A DNA stretch of 64,000 nucleotides, from sequence record MH533020.1. One strand, 5' to 3'. The position numbers and the translations under genes are program-made. Source of the stretch: Acinetobacter phage ABPH49. This document shows, in pieces, positions 516 through 11,301 of the stretch. Numbering within the stretch: position 1 is the first letter of the stretch; each line of letters begins with the position of its first letter. Below the pieces are notes generated by a model. It did not search any database, had not been told where the DNA came from, and saw only the letters and a list, made by a program, of their open reading frames with translations.

Positions 516-725
516 ATGTTGAACCTTGACCAGTTGAAAGCAGCAATAAATAACGGGGAGCTTGAAACGGCTTACAAGGATTGCCGCCGGTACGGGGTGA
601 TAACCTCCAAAGAGGATCGCCAGTGGTTTGGCGACATTATCACCACGGTTTGGATAAGTTATCTGGGTAGGCCCTTTAAATTCTCCTTGCGGTTAGGTGT
701 GGTAACGGCGGCAACTCTTTATTAA
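516..725 (+). CDS. Small hypothetical protein (69 aa, MLNLDQLKAAINNGELE...)
   Basis: First ATG downstream of the predicted transcription start; GGAG about 10 nt upstream. Followed by a hairpin terminator. Confidence 0.4.
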   Translation: MLNLDQLKAAINNGELETAYKDCRRYGVITSKEDRQWFGDIITTVWISYLGRPFKFSLRLGVVTAATLY

Positions 726-731
726 ATTGTG

Positions 732-767
732 TTGACAACCCAGCGCAAGCTGGGTTATTCTGTTGTC
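732..767 (+). terminator. TTGACA followed by ACCCAGC-GCAA-GCTGGGT hairpin and U-rich tail; terminator for the 516-725 gene and/or a promoter-hairpin module
   Basis: 7-bp stem with a GNRA loop followed by TATTCTGTTGTC. An outer inverted repeat TTGACAAC/GTTGTCA encloses it. Confidence 0.45.
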
Positions 768-959
768 AGCAGGAAACGCCACCCCACGGCGAAAAGGCGG
801 GGCTAACGCAGCCGGGCACGGCGCGGAAGGTTAATCGCCGGTAGCTCGTCCAAAATTTCTTTTGTAAAGATTGAGAAAAAGCTTGATCGTGGGTGTGAGT
901 GTGCTATTCTTATCACATGGCACCGGATGACGGGGAAGACAAACACCACCCCTGCCTGT

Positions 960-1015
960 CATTCTGCAAACGAGAATGATTATCATTCAACATCCTAAAT
1001 GAGAACCATTCTCAT
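960..1015. promoter_or_regulatory. Palindrome cluster built on AGAATG/CATTCT half-sites (candidate operator or origin element)
   Basis: CATTCTgcaaacgAGAATG at 960-978, GAATGAT-T-ATCATTC at 974-988, ATGAGAAccaTTCTCAT at 999-1015. Confidence 0.5.
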
Positions 1016-1067
1016 CCCGACCGGGAGAGATCTAGACCGAAAAACTGATTTACAAAAACAGGATACC

Positions 1068-1269
1068 CTAGAAAAATTTTTCGCCCTCCCCTCTTCTGAT
1101 ATAATACGATCGGAAATTTAAAAAATCGATCGAGATCCTAAAAATTTTTCGCCCTGCCCTTCTGTAGATTACGAAACCGAAAATGAAAAACCGATCGAGT
1201 ACCAGAAAATTTTTTCGCCCTCCCCTGCCCGGGGTATTTCGATCTCGATTTTGAAAAACCGATCGAGAA
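1068..1269. repeat. Three tandem direct repeats of about 66 bp (AAAATTTTTCGCCCTCCCC ... AAAAACCGATCGAG)
   Basis: Units at about 1068-1137, 1138-1202 and 1203-1269 share both end motifs with a variable ~20-bp core. The region is non-coding; only a spurious antisense ORF covers it. Confidence 0.75.
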
Positions 1270-1284
1270 CTCAAGTTTTTTTTA

Positions 1285-1500
1285 ATCCCACGAGGTTGGT
1301 AGGAGCGGGCCGATGGAGACCCTTCCGGTGGGTCAAGGTGTTGGGATACGTGGCGAAGTTATCCACACTTGGAGGTAAGTGGGTGGTAAGCTGTAGGTGG
1401 ATGGAGGCCCTGAGTGGGTGATTACCGGCAACCGAGTGGCCGCCGGGATCTCAATTTGAATCTCGATTTGGATTTGATTTTGATTCAGGTTTTATAATAT
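1285..1500 (+). other. G-rich non-coding tract (GGTGG/GGAGG-rich) followed by GATTTG and AAATATC micro-repeats
   Basis: Strongly strand-asymmetric G-rich composition with no ORF; the AAATATC repeats run into the 3' end of the 1512-2291 gene. Confidence 0.35.
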
Positions 1501-1511
1501 CCTGAAAAATA

Positions 1512-2291
1512 TCAAATATCTCCAAATATCTTGTCGAGATTGTACTGGTGGGACGGGTAAATCATCTGGAAAAGATCTCCCTCTTCTTTCGTAGGCTTCG
1601 TCCAGTCAACAAATATCTTCTTCACCTCTGCGATAGGGATCGTTAAATATCCGCTATCACCGGGCAGCTGCATCCCGACCTTACCCTCTGTAAGGTTCAA
1701 CACACATCCATTGCGGTAAACGTAGAAGCCGTGGCCGCACCACACGGCACGAATACCCTGCACTGGGTCCATGATCTGATACTCACCACGCTTCAAGTCA
1801 GGGTACATGGTGCAACGCCTCAGGCCGAGCGACGTAATTACCTCAACAAACAACGGGGCGACTTTATGTGCGGCTATGTGGGAATCAACAGTCATGGCGT
1901 ATGGGAGGTTTCTAGTAAGTTCTTCCCTCATGTGGGTCACCATAATCTTCAGCTGTTCCAGAGACAGCTCGTCAAGGTCTGGTTCCTCATGTAAGCCGCC
2001 TGACGCCTCTAGGGCACATACCACGTCATGGCGGAAGTCATCCATCTTCTCGTAGACTTTGTCGTGGTACTCCATGAAGTCACTGAAGTCGGGGGCCGAA
2101 AGGCTGTTAAGCTCCTTCACCAATGGGTGCACGTCATCAAGATCATCAGCATTATCGAGATTGTTGGCAATCGTGGCAATCTCCGACATCAGGTCATCCG
2201 CACTCGGAGAGGCTGGAGTCTTGCAATTGTAATTGGCATAGTATTCGGTAACACCCAATACGTGATCCATAGTGATATGGTTTAGTGGCAC
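1512..2291 (-). CDS. Hypothetical protein (about 260 aa; GTG start at 2291 after GGAGG, alternative ATG at 2270)
   Basis: Long ORF. The upstream part of the 303-aa track ORF is occupied by the terminator hairpin of the preceding gene. No confident family assignment. Confidence 0.55.
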   Translation of the reverse strand: MPLNHITMDHVLGVTEYYANYNCKTPASPSADDLMSEIATIANNLDNADDLDDVHPLVKELNSLSAPDFSDFMEYHDKVYEKMDDFRHDVVCALEASGGLHEEPDLDELSLEQLKIMVTHMREELTRNLPYAMTVDSHIAAHKVAPLFVEVITSLGLRRCTMYPDLKRGEYQIMDPVQGIRAVWCGHGFYVYRNGCVLNLTEGKVGMQLPGDSGYLTIPIAEVKKIFVDWTKPTKEEGDLFQMIYPSHQYNLDKIFGDI

Positions 2292-2370
2292 AAAACCTCC
2301 TGTACGCCATTCTAAAGACGTTGATTGTTTACTGGTGTGGTTGGATGGGTTGGGGGTTGAAAGTTGAATA

Positions 2371-2394
2371 GCGGCCCGCAGGGGCCGCACAGAA
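2371..2394 (-). terminator. Hairpin GCGGCCCCTGCGGGCCGC downstream of the 2396-2698 gene
   Basis: Perfect 7-bp GC stem immediately after the stop; weak U tract. Confidence 0.45.
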
Positions 2395-2395
2395 G

Positions 2396-2698
2396 CTACA
2401 GCAGGTACGCCACCAACCAGCACCGGGTCTTCATGAACTCAAGGGTCCAATCAACCGCTTCGTTGAACTCCGCGACGTGCTCGGCGCTGGCGCTGATCCG
2501 AAGGATATTGAAGGTATTATCGTCAACATCCAGAGTCACGTGACTGTTGAAGTCCTGACTCTCAAATTCGGCAACCACCAAATCTTCCATCTCAGCGTTG
2601 TCCGACCAAACGTTTTCAGGGTCGGTGCTCTCGAATGCCAGCCGGGCGGTAGAGATTATCGACTTGATCCCGAGATCTTTTCTTTCGTGATGTTTCAT
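2396..2698 (-). CDS. Acidic hypothetical protein (100 aa)
   Basis: ORF with a GGGAGA RBS; Asp/Glu-rich. Confidence 0.55.
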   Translation of the reverse strand: MKHHERKDLGIKSIISTARLAFESTDPENVWSDNAEMEDLVVAEFESQDFNSHVTLDVDDNTFNILRISASAEHVAEFNEAVDWTLEFMKTRCWLVAYLL

Positions 2699-8938: not shown

Positions 8939-9895
8939 TTAAAACATCTGTGGTGGCGGGAAGTATCTAATTTCTTCGTACTTAGGATATGAAGGATATC
9001 CTAACTTCTCCCCCTCGTCAACAAAAAACTGACCATCAGGCCAAACCATCCGAACCAGTGGTGGGATCTCTGGAAGGTTTTTAATCTCCTCGTCGAGCAT
9101 CTTTGCAACATCCTGCGTCCGGCAGAAGGAAGCACATACCCTGTCATTTGGGAAAATAACAGATTCATGCTCTGTGCCGATCTCCATCCACATGTGGGTG
9201 TCACGATTGGACCAGCTGGAATAGTCCCTGACATTGGACCCATAATCCGGCCGCGCCGGTGCATTGCCGAAGTTTATCCGCAAGCCACCCAGCTGCGTCC
9301 TAACCCTATTGACGCCATACCCGAATTCCTTCGTCACCAGAGAGATCTCTGTCCCGAGCGTCAGCTCTTTGTGTTCTTCGGTGAGAAGACTACTCACCGC
9401 ACTTAAACCCTCTATGCAGTACCAGAGGGACCCAACTTTTGGGCCACTACCCTGTTGGGAATCGAGCTTATAGAAATGCTCGAAAAGCTCCTCCAGAACG
9501 GTTTTTATGGAGGTGTTGTAGAATTTAACCATCCCAGTCCCGCTGACTGTCGGCATCAGATTAGGGCTTGCATTGGTGGTGGTGTGGTATCGGATAGATG
9601 GAGCCTCACGATAGAGAACAAAGGAAACGTCATCCCTTTCCTGATGCTTTACTGAATAGGCAGCGGCGCTGCCCATATTGATCATCGCATCAAGAATGCG
9701 CTCATGGAACTGAACAGACCGGTAATTTGGTATTTTACGCAAGGCTGAGTAAAACAGTGACTCATTTTTGTCGTTGGTCTGAGTGTCCCAATTGCCATTC
9801 AACATCGCCTTCATCTCCCTTTCTGAGAAGTTTGGTGTGCGTATGGATCGTTGTCCGACCCACCACGGATTTTTGTCAATTTTCATATTCCCTCC
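8939..9895 (-). CDS. Hypothetical protein (318 aa)
   Basis: Long ORF; GGAGGG RBS 3 nt before the ATG at 9895. No recognisable motif. Confidence 0.65.
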   Translation of the reverse strand, partial: GGNMKIDKNPWWVGQRSIRTPNFSEREMKAMLNGNWDTQTNDKNESLFYSALRKIPNYRSVQFHERILDAMINMGSAAAYSVKHQERDDVSFVLYREAPSIRYHTTTNASPNLMPTVSGTGMVKFYNTSIKTVLEELFEHFYKLDSQQGSGPKVGSLWYCIEGLSAVSSLLTEEHKELTLGTEISLVTKEFGYGVNRVRTQLGGLRINFGNAPARPDYGSNVRDYSSWSNRDTHMWMEIGTEHESVIFPNDRVCASFCRTQDVAKMLDEEIKNLPEIPPLVRMVWPDGQFFVDEGEKLGYPSYPKYEEIRYFPPPQMF

Positions 9896-9944
9896 TTCAT
9901 TAGATTCACATAAAGGTACCATGATATTTTTATGATTTCAAGTG

Positions 9945-9973
9945 TTGACTTCGGATAATTCGACATGTAATAT
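9945..9973 (+). promoter_or_regulatory. Sigma-70 promoter TTGACT-N17-TAATAT with TG at -14, heading the rightward block
   Basis: Sits at the divergent junction. Shares TTGACTTCGG...TAATAT with the promoter at 42165. Confidence 0.55.
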
Positions 9974-10005
9974 TGGCACATCTTAAACGAACTGAGGGTA
10001 TGAAT

Positions 10006-10704
10006 ATGTCTCGAGTTATGACCAAGAAAGAAAAGATGGCCTACATCCAAGAAACCAAGAAGATCTTGGCCGGAGCACCGACAGACTTTATCGCGGGGTT
10101 TGATCATCAGAAAGGTACGGACTTCATGGCTTACCGCGACAACCCATACACCCGTGAAGATGGGGACAAGGGCCGCCACTGGGCCGCTGGTTTTGAACGG
10201 GCAACCATTACCAATCGGGTACGGGAGGAACTGAAGAACACCGTTCCTGTGACCTTCGGCGAGATCCTTGCTCTGCCACGTAAAGATATGGAGTCTTGGG
10301 ACACATCTCGTATTTGCAGCCTGATCGAGCACCACATGATCCAAGGTGTCTATAACGCAACAAGCGTCTGGGTGGAAGATAAGGCCTTTGAGCGCATCGA
10401 CGTCGAGACGATCTTCTACGACAATGGTGATGGAGAACGTACCCGCACTATCGGCCTGTTGAGCTTCGACAGTATCCCTGTGATGCTTTACAACCACTCT
10501 GGTCGTGGTAGTTTTGAATACTCCAACGAATTTGTTTTGAATTCGCTTGTGTTCAAGAACATGGCGTTGTATATTCAAAGTGTTCTTTTGGAACACGACG
10601 ATGATGCGGATATTGTTGAGTATTCGCCAGATGATGACGCGGAGCACCTGATCAACTTCTATGGGTCCCGTCTGGAAATTGTAAAAGGAGAGGAAAATGT
10701 CTAA
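10006..10704 (+). CDS. Hypothetical protein (232 aa), first gene of the rightward block
   Basis: GAGGG RBS 7 nt before the ATG at 10006. The ORF-track TTG start at 9973 lies inside the promoter -10. Confidence 0.6.
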   Translation: MSRVMTKKEKMAYIQETKKILAGAPTDFIAGFDHQKGTDFMAYRDNPYTREDGDKGRHWAAGFERATITNRVREELKNTVPVTFGEILALPRKDMESWDTSRICSLIEHHMIQGVYNATSVWVEDKAFERIDVETIFYDNGDGERTRTIGLLSFDSIPVMLYNHSGRGSFEYSNEFVLNSLVFKNMALYIQSVLLEHDDDADIVEYSPDDDAEHLINFYGSRLEIVKGEENV

Positions 10705-10954: not shown

Positions 10955-11301
10955 TGAAAACCTCTAAAATCGATGAGGCGTTGATACTTTTCCTGTTGTG
11001 CTGGGCTATCATCGCCACGTGGTTTGCTATTCCAAGCGGCCCGCGATCGGATCTTCTTCAATCCAAAGAGGAGATCGCTGCCATCATGAAGGCCAGTGGC
11101 TACCGGGACGTAACTTTTGGACCGGAAGTTAAGCAGATGGGCAAGGAGTGGGGTCCTTGCCTGATCTTTGATGCCCGATATGAGAAGTCTCATGTCAGTG
11201 GTGGATACTGCACACCGAAATTTATGGACTGGGGTGTTGTCATTACTGACTACAAAGTTTCCGATATGGAACATAAAATCGAGGAGAGTTATCAAAAATG
11301 A
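10951..11301 (+). CDS. N-terminally membrane-anchored protein (116 aa)
   Basis: GGAGGG RBS, ATGA overlap, one N-terminal TM helix. Confidence 0.6.
   Translation: MMKTSKIDEALILFLLCWAIIATWFAIPSGPRSDLLQSKEEIAAIMKASGYRDVTFGPEVKQMGKEWGPCLIFDARYEKSHVSGGYCTPKFMDWGVVITDYKVSDMEHKIEESYQK

Follow-up and report, generated by a model that had tools for sequence, protein, structure and literature searches.

What function is served by a stretch of about 780 bp that a phage keeps free of genes and fills with repeats? Positions 726-1511 of a window of 64,000 nucleotides (the whole stretch of DNA that was analysed) from the rV5-like Acinetobacter phage ABPH49 (MH533020.1) raise this question. This non-coding region, hereafter the hub, contains direct repeats of 66-68 bp in three copies, a pair of 19-bp palindromes, a block rich in G, and AT-rich micro-repeats. 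An initial annotation, made from the sequence alone, had proposed a replication origin, a packaging region, or a multi-site array for a regulator. We found that the hub is a conserved control region, an ordered gene-free DNA platform, in which predicted inward promoter(s) and small structured RNA(s), palindromes at 29-bp phasing, direct repeats, a G-rich block, and an AT-rich tract follow one another; the data support a non-coding, multi-site region of the nucleoprotein type. The features of the locus, with the basis of each call in brackets, are as follows.

457-484, + strand: P0, near-consensus sigma-70 promoter TTGACT-16-TATAAT (11/12 matches)
516-725, + strand: variable small-ORF cassette, 69 aa (ORF list and comparison between phages)
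732-761, + strand: P1, promoter-like site TTGACA-18-TATTCT (10/12 matches)
771-869, + strand: element A, candidate structured RNA (conservation, covariation)
883-910, + strand: P2, promoter-like site TTGATC-16-TATTCT with TG before the -10 (sequence reading and cross-genus alignment)
917-958, + strand: element B, short conserved segment (cross-genus alignment)
966-1016, no strand assigned: two 19-bp palindromes, Fur-box-like array (Fur matrix, phasing, blastn)
1039-1056, + strand: degenerate copy of the unit end-motif, GAAAAACTGATTTACAAA (repeat-family search; ChuuTotoro copy at +70)
1070-1271, + strand: three direct-repeat units (Tandem Repeats Finder, repeat search)
1285-1440, + strand: G-rich, C-poor block (composition scan)
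1448-1531, no strand assigned: AT-rich tract with GATTTG-type and CAAATATC micro-repeats (75% A+T)

Each element that the initial annotation had described was recovered in place or a few bases off. It had overlooked that the most conserved part of the hub is 771-1016, as well as the structured RNA, the Fur-box-like nature of the palindromes, and a layout parallel to the injection-stop region of phage T5. Its statement that the region contains no credible ORF held: the ORFs of 40-68 aa are broken by 1- or 2-nt indels (1076, 1210, and 1276-1277) in the near-identical phage Kashira, whose annotation calls zero genes across the hub, and coding potential was rejected because these indels break the frames. 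ARAGORN found no tRNAs in the hub, and on this result tRNAs or tRNA remnants in the 66-bp units were rejected; tRNA features laid over the hub in one database record were not reproduced and were likewise set aside. Rfam searches, at the gathering threshold and at E <= 10, gave zero family matches in the hub. A clustering of GATC sites proved weak (8 sites in 460 bp against a window mean of 7 per kb, with other 460-bp windows holding 9-10); as the genome is GATC-rich and the count unexceptional, a GATC/Dam cluster was dropped as a special feature.

The promoter at 457-484 and the TTGACA hairpin module noted previously are both present. P0 points inward, away from the predicted left genome end, and is the predicted driver of the small + strand ORF. 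This 69-aa cassette, the sole + strand gene within a run of - strand genes, has as its only PHROG match a family with unknown function, and Kashira, 97% identical over the hub, has a different ORF in the same slot. Since the slot is filled by three unrelated ORF types across different phages, the upstream ORF was rejected as a conserved partner protein. An 8-bp GNRA hairpin (737-756) lies within the spacer of P1 and is likely the terminator of the cassette; between the window and Kashira it shows two compensatory double substitutions (742/751 and 744/749). The TTGACA hairpin module occurs as a single instance in the window and was rejected as a recurrent element on that ground. According to the cross-genus alignment, the -35 and -10 of P1 are kept across genera. 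P2 falls under the promoter-scan threshold in the window; its form in relatives, TTGCAA-17-TATATT, is stronger than the window version.

Element A follows a predicted sigma-70 promoter. It comprises a proposed H-type pseudoknot (777-802, CGCC/GGCG plus CCCC/GGGG), a bulged hairpin (807-825), the invariant GGAAGGTnnATCGCCGGTAG, and a 3' end of TTTGTAAAG. The element is 70-76% conserved in about 358 records, with a 26-nt core that is invariant. All 16 distinct variants fold alike into the bulged hairpin, with covarying pairs, and the Hena1-like clade has CCAA/TTGG in the pseudoknot stem instead of CCCC/GGGG. No Rfam family matched element A. Its core was absent, save for one MAG contig, from 185,579 genomes of bacterial and archaeal species, and a host origin was rejected for this reason. 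Element A is a candidate for a new conserved structured RNA that is phage-specific.

Element B is present twice in rV5-type phages. Its invariant motif, GA(A/G)GACAA(A/T)CACC (935-947), may form a hairpin loop, with stems that read GGGG/CCCC, CCGG/CCGG, or CCC/GGG depending on the clade. Because its folding energies fail to beat those of shuffled sequences, the structure is only suggested, and element B was not retained as a well-supported RNA hairpin.

The cluster of AGAATG/CATTCT half-sites reported earlier at 960-1015 was found again. Palindrome 1, AACGAGAATGATTATCATT (969-987), includes the perfect GAATGAT-T-ATCATTC, and palindrome 2, AATGAGAACCATTCTCATC (998-1016), is offset from it by 29 bp; this phasing is kept in 13 of the 16 mapped lineages. 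Both were scored with a Fur weight matrix trained only on E. coli sites (9 K-12 promoter regions), which recovers the known box GATAATGATAATCATTATC. The top three 19-mers of the 64-kb window by this matrix are those at 966 (16.0 bits), 972 (14.5), and 995 (14.1). Hub sites score 12-20 bits against leave-one-out scores of 9.2-17.3 bits for real operators, figures to be read with the AT-rich and palindromic character of the matrix, by which single sites in shuffled windows reach 15.4 bits. Operator-level scores are also found in all hubs, with 2-14 Fur-like sites per hub, and in T5. Pairs of Fur-like sites offset by 6 bp (966/972 here) occur in nearly all hubs, and overlapping sites 6 bp (or 3 bp) apart are a known operator feature (Chen et al. 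2007, PMC2189734).

Fur operators of Enterobacterales have the 19-bp box GATAATGATAATCATTATC, in the 7-1-7 reading (PMC2189734). The likeness to them lies in the matrix scores and the 6-bp-offset pairs, together with a GAGAAT/ATTCTC half-site variant that the hub sites have in common with the recovered fhuA, ryhB, and fepB-entC Fur sites. In contrast to Fur operators, the hub sites are discrete 19-bp palindromes at a fixed 29-bp phasing, occur not before iron genes but in terminal repeats and the non-coding hub of a phage, and overlap no convincing promoter. The predicted P2 start is about 50-100 nt upstream of them, and a - strand promoter candidate near them (TTGAAT-18-CAGAAT) has key -10 positions that are not conserved. 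On these sequence features, we regard the hub palindromes as Fur-operator-like, putative Fur sites.

The three direct repeats of about 66 bp, placed at 1068-1269 by the initial annotation, correspond to units at 1070-1137, 1138-1203, and 1204-1271. Tandem Repeats Finder gave a period of 66 with 77% matches over 1070-1226 (score 182), and the repeat search detected both sub-blocks in three copies over 1070-1282, at spacings of 65-68 bp. Each unit combines an A5-6T5-6 tract and a variable stretch with (A)TACG, a short dyad that stays symmetric though variable in sequence, and TTGAAAAACCGATCGAG(A/T)AC; the degenerate end-motif at 1039-1056 is what putatively remains of a fourth unit. The idea that every unit is a sigma-70 promoter was rejected on account of unsuitable hexamer spacings. 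The repeats are kept in relatives, the outcome that the initial annotation had set as a check on itself: KB57, PVP-SE1, and Hena1 have three unit copies each. The unit architecture is found in three copies in four genera and the palindromes are kept in about 358 phage records, a recurrence beyond what chance would give. Mydovirus matches the 35-nt end piece 1236-1270 at 97% identity, and zero substitutions separate the window from Kashira over 917-1289. Stephanstirmvirinae carry unrelated repeats in place of the units.

Composition bore out the strand-asymmetric G-rich block described at 1285-1440, which is 40% G and 19% C with a GC skew of +0.37 (rank 41 of 6385 among 156-nt windows). A G-rich composition is found at the equivalent position in ChuuTotoro, FV3, T5, and Kpn13-P3 (skews +0.35 to +0.72); the sequence of the block is not conserved and holds 6 of the 15 substitutions relative to Kashira. 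The GATTTG and AAATATC micro-repeats already noted are present at 1448-1485 and 1513-1531, and the AT-rich tract overlaps the 3' end of gene 1512-2423, which is on the - strand. Clusters of AAATATC lie 476-557 bp past the first palindrome in most hubs of Vequintavirinae and Stephanstirmvirinae, the exceptions being FV3, an outlier at 675 bp, and the Aeromonas hub, which has none.

The segment 771-1015 matches about 358 phage records from Vequintavirinae, Stephanstirmvirinae, and one Aeromonas Plateaulakevirus. The ordered hub was present in all the Vequintavirinae and Stephanstirmvirinae examined and in the Aeromonas myophage, and the order of its elements is constant. Its position relative to the genome ends can be read from relatives with published terminus mapping. 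The Gotham record opens with a 459-bp terminal repeat, and its palindromes begin at 11,168, with a second cluster at 11,298, 8.2% of the genome from the left end. The direct terminal repeat of KPP-1 occupies 116,316-116,829 and its hub lies at 125,149, 6.2% from the left end. The distance between hub and terminal repeat is 8.8 kb in KPP-1 and 11.3 kb in Gotham. The terminal repeats of the relatives (459-514 bp) carry hub-type palindromes. In Kashira, a homologous gap that looks like a terminus lies about 13.5 kb (9.4%) left of the hub, by which the terminus of ABPH49 is predicted to lie outside the window, at about 9.4%. In the relatives with mapped ends, about 20-30 small leftward genes of early type make up a block that is bordered on its inner side by the hub and on its outer side by a palindrome-bearing terminal repeat.

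We compared this arrangement with Repeat Region 3 of phage T5, the region of the injection stop signal, iss (Heusterspreute 1987; Wang 2005, annotation of AY587007; Davison, bioRxiv 10.1101/866236), whose role as a stop signal is itself inferred from position. Both are large untranslated regions dense in direct and inverted repeats and palindromes, with flanking ORFs that vary. They share a family of 19-23-bp palindromes, (A)AATGAGAATnATTCTCATT(T), the hub palindromes being homologous to T5 palindromes E, G, and I. In blastn searches, the window matched the T5-like phage Kpn13-P3 with 85.7% identity over 49 nt (E = 5e-7), and phAPEC8 matched T5 with 96.8% over 31 nt (E = 1e-10); the palindromes of Kpn13-P3 match other hubs as well and also have the 29-bp phasing. 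The Kpn13-P3 region in turn has matches in 579 T5-like records, located at about 9-10 kb and within the left terminal repeat, and in Salmonella phage S114 the region is annotated as 'similar to DNA injection stop signal'. The order in T5 (9194-10409) is DnaA boxes, palindromes E/G/I, nine DRD repeats, a G-rich block, and two TTGAGATA motifs 22 bp apart. Hubs too have DnaA box(es), a direct-repeat array, and a G-rich block, and agree with T5 in the order of these parts and in their polarity relative to the left end. A TTGAGATA (DRA) pair at 22-23 bp takes the same relative place in the hubs of KB57, Hena1, phAPEC8, and nieznany and is absent from the ABPH49 window. Palindrome E of T5 lies at 7.8% of the genome and the limit of first-step transfer at 7.9%, and the hubs lie at about 6-9%. 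In both cases, a variable small-ORF region is transcribed toward the region, with a terminator hairpin at its end.

The hub also differs from the T5 region. It is without the IRD'-spacer-IRC' inverted repeat, paired DnaA boxes, and site-specific nick of T5: neither paired DnaA/DnaA* boxes nor a 131-bp inverted repeat was found in the hub, which has a single perfect box at 1359, whereas T5 has 8 DnaA/DnaA* boxes per first-step-transfer region. No DRD repeats (GTGCAAATCCGACA, 9 copies in T5) were found in the hub, where the 67-bp units stand instead. The T5 region is located within a terminal repeat of about 10 kb or along its inner edge; the hub is not, and it has in addition the element A RNA candidate, element B, and 67-bp A/T-tract units. 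At the sequence level, similarity to T5 does not go beyond the palindrome array, plus TTGAGATA in relatives, and the resemblance could reflect convergent use of one host protein, not common descent. The pre-early genes A1 and A2 of T5 are needed for transfer to resume. When 15 T5 pre-early proteins were compared by tblastn with the window, the left end of Gotham (1-13.5 kb), and the other hub loci, no homologues of A1, A2, or dmp appeared below E = 0.35, a search that remote homologues could escape; the presence of such homologues was rejected on this result.

The reading that we favour, tentatively and at somewhat short of an even chance, is that the hub is the Vequintavirinae counterpart of T5 Repeat Region 3, a T5-iss-like docking platform for host factors, next to an early gene block that would be the first to enter. 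A host protein that Enterobacterales and Aeromonas have in common, most likely Fur, would bind the palindromes, and a second, clade-specific factor would bind the 67-bp units. Both factors would form a nucleoprotein complex on the first DNA entering the cell, and this complex would pause, anchor, or insulate the genome at the hub during expression of the early block. Transcription across the hub from the inward P0, P1, and P2 would yield RNAs, or help the block to be released or opened. Because homologues of T5 A1, A2, and dmp were not found in the window or in the left 13.5 kb of Gotham, the palindromes are more likely bound by a factor of the host than by one of the phage.

It is unlikely, though worth weighing, that the hub is instead a replication origin, in which transcription from P0-P2 would generate an R-loop on the G-rich non-template block, DnaA would bind at 1359, the A+T tract would unwind, and the units would act as iterons. 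The perfect DnaA box TTATCCACA (1359-1367), inside the G-rich block, is the only one in the 64-kb window; the G-rich + strand lies downstream of + strand promoters, the AT-rich repeat tract comes next, and the three direct repeats are conserved. With its direct repeats, DnaA box, AT-rich tract, and nearby transcription, the hub resembles iteron/DnaA-box origins such as lambda ori, P1 oriR, and oriC. It differs from them in the length of its units, 66-68 bp, whereas typical iterons are 17-22 bp, in a DnaA box that is not conserved outside Kashira, and in having neither a cognate initiator gene nor a skew signal. No initiator gene was found next to the hub, where the only adjacent slot of conserved position is that of the variable cassette, and the cumulative GC skew changes direction near 10 kb, together with gene orientation, rather than at the hub; as it tracks gene orientation only, it was discarded as an origin signal. 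The T5 region has been called 'reminiscent of oriC' (Davison, bioRxiv 10.1101/866236), but the T5 origins were mapped near the genome centre and not in the homologous region, equally origin-like as it is (Davison preprint).

Similarly doubtful is a module that combines regulatory RNA with a transcription factor and takes no part in DNA entry. Small RNAs from P1 and P2 (A and B) would act on host or phage targets, and the Fur-like boxes would gate read-through by iron or titrate Fur after genome amplification. The covariation and invariant core of element A agree with such a module, as do the conservation of P1 and P2, a GTAAA-N5-GTAAA motif (which we take to be CpxR-box-like) just upstream of the P2 -35 in several genera, G-U stem pairs in element B that favour the + strand (read by eye in the alignment), and the number of Fur-like sites per hub, which score at the level of real operators. 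However, it leaves unexplained the palindromes in the terminal repeats, the constant distance to the end, and the direct-repeat, G-rich, and TTGAGATA parts shared with T5, and the element B structure that it invokes is without statistical support.

We consider it very improbable that the 67-bp units are transcribed as a tandem-repeat RNA decoy, of the type III antitoxin or phiTE pseudo-ToxI type, against a host defence nuclease. The dyads that keep their symmetry while varying in sequence, and a promoter-like site directly 5' of unit 1 in KB57 and PVP-SE1, would suit a decoy, but type III antitoxin repeats are about 34-45 nt and the units are longer (66-68 nt), there is no Rfam match, the A-tract/T-tract blocks and fixed motifs are what one would sooner expect of DNA sites, and Stephanstirmvirinae have unrelated repeats in the unit position. 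A relative, the Vequintavirinae phage phiTE, does carry a non-coding tandem-repeat decoy RNA (PMC3475682), but its repeat is 36 nt with no sequence similarity to the hub, and it lies at 106.7 kb, whereas the phiTE hub is at 39.5 kb; the identity of the units with pseudo-ToxI was rejected because the loci are different.

A packaging (pac/cos) site or physical terminus, as suggested by the initial annotation, is scarcely credible: repeats, palindromes, and bent A/T tracts recall pac regions, the palindromes are common to the terminal repeats, and several records (R7, EC152, and phi1_175008) begin in the first unit, but the hub is unlikely to be such a site because it lies well inside the genome in the two relatives with mapped termini (8.8 kb away in KPP-1 and 11.3 kb in Gotham), and the R7 record starts exactly in the A6T6 tract of unit 1, which we read as an assembly break in a tandem repeat, so that hub-starting records were discarded as evidence for a terminus.

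If the hub is a counterpart of T5 Repeat Region 3, the DNA of rV5-like phages may enter, or be switched on, in two stages. To our knowledge, two-step injection has not been reported for rV5-like phages. As a circumstantial point in favour of the T5-like reading, Demerecviridae and Vequintavirinae are both highly sensitive to daunorubicin, and the drug blocks the T5-like phage Bas33 after first-step transfer (PMC13250531). A broader proposal, which we regard as decidedly unlikely when taken as a whole, is that rV5-like and phAPEC8-like myophages and the Aeromonas relative share two-stage delivery or activation, in which Fur on the terminal-repeat and hub palindromes would be the stop, anchor, or looping factor and would make commitment iron-gated. 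If true, this would make Fur operators of T5 palindromes E, G, and I, for which there has been no explanation since 1987.

For over 50 years it has been asked how and why the entry of T5 DNA halts at 8%, and the function of the T5 palindromes and repeats has been called impossible to guess. Here, a second, unrelated-looking group of large myophages keeps the palindrome array, the order of elements, the relative distance to the end, and the terminal-repeat copy, with no A1/A2 homologues found. In consequence, a host factor, with Fur as a concrete candidate, is now directly testable, and comparison across families can give the rules of the region. The rV5-like phages, which are much used in therapy and biocontrol, may have an unrecognised early checkpoint.

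The hub, the conserved non-coding region at 726-1511 of the window, contained all the elements that the initial annotation had named there, and nearly all the genes around it lie on the minus strand. From left to right, the elements are ordered as follows:

457-484, predicted promoter P0, which would drive the small ORF
516-725 (+), small ORF, the sole plus-strand ORF adjoining the hub
726-1511, non-coding stretch between the small ORF and the 3' end of the gene at 1512-2423 (-)
732-761, promoter-like site P1, with a GNRA hairpin (737-756) in its spacer
771-869, element A, candidate structured RNA
883-910, promoter-like site P2, weak in the window and stronger in relatives
917-958, element B, candidate RNA segment with invariant GAGACAAACACC
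969-987 and 998-1016, two 19-bp palindromes
between the palindromes and the units, degenerate unit remnant
1070-1271, three direct repeats ("units") of 66-68 bp
1285-1440, G-rich block, 40% G versus 19% C
after the G-rich block, AT-rich CAAATATC tract, with AT-rich micro-repeats at 1448-1531

The units were recovered by TRF (period 66, score 182), with both sub-blocks in three copies. At its left end, the window shares 97-98% identity with Serratia phage vB_SmaM-Kashira, which belongs to Vequintavirinae (rV5-like myophages, about 145 kb) and whose annotation calls no gene across the hub. The short ORFs of the stretch, which had been judged not credible, are indeed not genes, being broken by 1- and 2-nt indels relative to Kashira (1076, 1210, and 1276-1277). 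No Rfam family matched in the stretch. ARAGORN found no tRNA in the window; the tRNA-Ile and tRNA-Met annotated on the minus strand over the counterpart of elements A and B in K45PH128C2 (OY978796; locus L003, 2599-2752) may be wrong in call or coordinates. The clustering of GATC in the hub is unremarkable, because the window is GATC-rich throughout (448 sites in 64 kb, or 7.0 per kb, about 1.8 times the hand-estimated 3.9 or so per kb expected at 50% GC).

The initial annotation would have been undermined by repeats conserved in no relative, and this is clearly not the case, as parts of the hub recur widely. By BLAST, 771-1015 matched about 358 phage records at 70-88% identity, from Vequintavirus, Seunavirus, Mydovirus, Certrevirus, Henunavirus, Stephanstirmvirinae (phAPEC8 and Justusliebigvirus types), and one Aeromonas Plateaulakevirus. 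The sequence of 1031-1510 (repeats, G-rich block, and micro-repeats) is kept only in Kashira and, up to 1270, in ChuuTotoro. The repeat architecture is general: KB57, PVP-SE1, and Hena1 have three units each, with the consensus AAAAAATTTTTTCGC, about 10 variable nucleotides, and AAAATACGATTT.GAATTTGAAAAACCGATCGAGAACC. Between the window and Kashira, we found 0 substitutions in 917-1289 and six in the G-rich block. Hence, it is sequence that is constrained in the palindromes and units, and only composition in the G-rich block.

Some records deserve comment. Hubs resembling those of E. coli rV5-type and phAPEC8-type phages occur in 21 records labeled "Campylobacter phage" (MG0656xx; 135-151 kb) and in one labeled "Acinetobacter phage", and these host labels look doubtful. 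Several deposited genomes (R7, PQ002170; PP681140; PP357458) start within the first unit, probably because the assembly broke in the tandem repeat. For Salmonella phage R7, position 1 of the record falls right in the A6T6 tract, with 12-91 annotated as "attL" (locus L029, 1-91); R7 is classed as Demerecviridae, yet over its first 600 bases it does not differ from PVP-SE1.

The ORF slot at 516-725 is a swappable cassette, occupied by three unrelated proteins across phages, and the protein of Kashira differs from that of the window. One type (LGWQGGTVHQVA...) is common to Kashira, JLBYU50, and phiTE (loci L002, 2731-2997, and L004, 1256-1438). The window-Kashira differences bunch at 726-770, the junction with the swapped cassette. 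Two compensatory double substitutions there (742/751 and 744/749) leave the P1 hairpin intact. The motif GTAAA-N5-GTAAA abuts the -35 element of P2 upstream in Certrevirus, Seunavirus, Mydovirus, and Stephanstirmvirinae hubs (position 2643 in locus L001; 1599 in L007, L004, and L008; 1594 in L005), and is degenerate in the window (about 864-880). A GC-rich inverted repeat, CCGGC...GCCGG, at 1425-1446 ends the G-rich block directly before the AT-rich tract and may be a terminator of plus-strand transcripts; at this place, ChuuTotoro carries a strong but unrelated hairpin, CGGCAGG-ATAC-CCTGCCG.

The 26-nt core of element A, CGCCACCCCACGGCGAAAAGGCGGGG, is invariant in most lineages and can fold into an H-type pseudoknot with stems CGCC/GGCG and CCCC/GGGG, the second of which is replaced by CCAA/TTGG in the Hena1-like clade. 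The hairpin that follows (807-825) occurs in 16 distinct sequence versions, all with one fold of basal stem, 1-nt bulge, and upper stem. This covariation is good comparative evidence that element A forms a structured RNA. Element A matched no Rfam family, and among 185,579 bacterial and archaeal species (one genome each), its core was found only in one MAG contig. For element B, a hairpin displaying GAGACAAACACC is plausible, and the fold had no statistical support. The rV5-type phages lack element A and have in its stead two tandem modules of promoter, element B, and palindrome (FV3, locus L006, 1295-1420 and 1440-1585; Gotham, locus L032, 11,168 and 11,298).

The palindromes have the consensus AATGAGAATnATTCTCATT. 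In 13 of the 16 mapped lineages, each hub has one to four copies, spaced exactly 29 bp from start to start; the Aeromonas phage has a spacing of 28 bp, a T5-like phage one of 29-35-29, and JLBYU50 one of 23 bp, and the FV3 copies are split. Because the palindromes look like the Fur box, nine promoter regions of E. coli K-12 known to be Fur-regulated (fepA-fes, fepD-entS, fepB-entC, fhuA, ryhB, cirA, tonB, exbB, and fecA) served to train a palindromic 19-mer matrix, which converged on the textbook consensus GATAATGATAATCATTATC. The three best 19-mers of the 64-kb window were at 966 (16.0 bits), 972 (14.5), and 995 (14.1), and only one further site exceeded 12 bits; real Fur operators scored 9.2-17.3 bits in leave-one-out. 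Every hub and the T5 region contained 2-14 sites of 12-20 bits, mostly paired at a 6-bp offset, the spacing of genuine Fur clusters (Chen et al., PMC2189734). The scores measure the Fur-likeness of the palindromes, not Fur binding. T5 also has a strong pair (17.8 and 16.3 bits, GGAACTGATAATCATTATCATCCTC) at 228-252 (locus L033), 228 bp from its left end, in the 3' part of dmp. The palindromes are near-identical among phages of Escherichia, Klebsiella, Serratia, Pectobacterium, Erwinia, and Aeromonas, and the adjacent direct repeats differ from clade to clade (67-bp units, DRD repeats, or the AAACTTTAAATTTTG type of phAPEC8). Such a distribution is consistent with the palindromes being bound by one protein common to these hosts and the repeats by proteins particular to each lineage.

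The weakest BLAST match of the palindrome region was in Klebsiella phage Kpn13-P3, at a locus with DnaA boxes, the same palindromes, and numerous GTGCAAATCCGACA repeats. In 579 T5-like records, this locus has matches at about 9-10 kb, within "left terminal repeat" features, and the matching region of Salmonella phage S114 is annotated "similar to DNA injection stop signal on T5st0". The T5 region (AY587007, 9194-10409) contains, in order, DnaA boxes, palindromes E, G, and I (AAATACGAATCATTATCATTCG, AAATGAGAATCATTATCATTTGC, and AAATGAGATTGATTCTCATT), nine DRD repeats, a strongly G-rich block (skew +0.72), and two TTGAGATA repeats 22 bp apart. It is the presumptive injection stop signal (iss), conserved beside unconserved ORFs, with palindromes and repeats of a function described as impossible to guess (Davison, bioRxiv 10.1101/866236). 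The hubs likewise run from palindromes through direct repeats to a G-rich block, and a TTGAGATA pair at 22-23 bp ends the series in KB57, Hena1, phAPEC8, and nieznany. Local blastn aligned the hubs significantly with T5, S114, and Kpn13-P3, in the palindrome array only. However, the hub lacks paired DnaA boxes in the IRD'-spacer-IRC' arrangement, DRD repeats, and a long terminal repeat. By tblastn, none of 15 T5 pre-early proteins was found in the window, the left 13.5 kb of Gotham, or the other hub loci. T5 transfer resumes only with A1 and A2, and neither was found in these sequences. As several defining features are missing, we do not file the hub as a member of the T5 iss. In the literature searched, no paper connected Fur boxes with T5-like phages or with the iss region; to our knowledge, there is no earlier description of this layout in rV5-like and phAPEC8-like myophages, of the resemblance of the shared palindromes to Fur operators, or of element A.

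The record of Gotham (Vequintavirus) opens with its 459-bp terminal repeat; the first palindrome lies at 11,168 and the second cluster at 11,298, or 8.2% of 137 kb, and about 30 small ORFs, all on the minus strand, separate the end from the hub. In KPP-1 (Mydovirus), the direct terminal repeat (514 bp, 116,316-116,829) was confirmed by PhageTerm, and the hub is at 125,149, or 6.2% of the genome. For T5, the corresponding figures are 7.8% for palindrome E and 7.9% for the limit of first-step transfer. In Kashira, no genes occupy a 1.2-kb gap that lies about 13.5 kb to the left of the hub and shares ATTTAACATAAAACACGTTATACGCAC with the terminal repeats of KPP-1 and Gotham; thus, the terminus of the window phage is predicted to lie about 9% of the genome away, beyond the window. 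The terminal-repeat regions of relatives contain the same AATGAGAAT-type palindromes (12-19.6 bits by the Fur matrix), AAATATC motifs, and G-rich tracts (Gotham, L032, 8-50 and 121-165; KPP-1, L092, 900-975 and 1437-1519; Kashira, L093, 2688-2755), so that one motif set flanks the early block at both sides.

We tentatively read the hub as a T5-iss-type platform, on which host factors would dock in the first-entering part of the genome, and consider this slightly less than an even chance. A replication origin, proposed initially, is unlikely: a DnaA box (TTATCCACA at 1359, in the G-rich block, the only perfect one in 64 kb), an AT tract, and promoters followed by a non-template strand rich in G favor it, but there is no initiator gene or skew signal, and the T5 origins were mapped elsewhere (Davison, bioRxiv 10.1101/866236). 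To a purely regulatory module of RNA and Fur we give the same low probability as to an origin. That the units act as a repeat-RNA decoy is very improbable, and a pac or cos site, also suggested initially, is less probable still, as the terminal repeats of Gotham and KPP-1 are located away from the hub.

Circumstantial backing for the T5-iss-type platform comes from daunorubicin, to which Demerecviridae and Vequintavirinae are both highly sensitive and which stops a T5-like phage after first-step transfer (PMC13250531). On such a platform, host factors, with Fur as the likeliest candidate, would bind the first-entering DNA and assemble a nucleoprotein complex, which may pause or insulate DNA entry, and elements A and B may act there as RNAs. 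The GTAAA-N5-GTAAA upstream of P2 corresponds to the CpxR box consensus, and such a motif would connect P2 to envelope stress.
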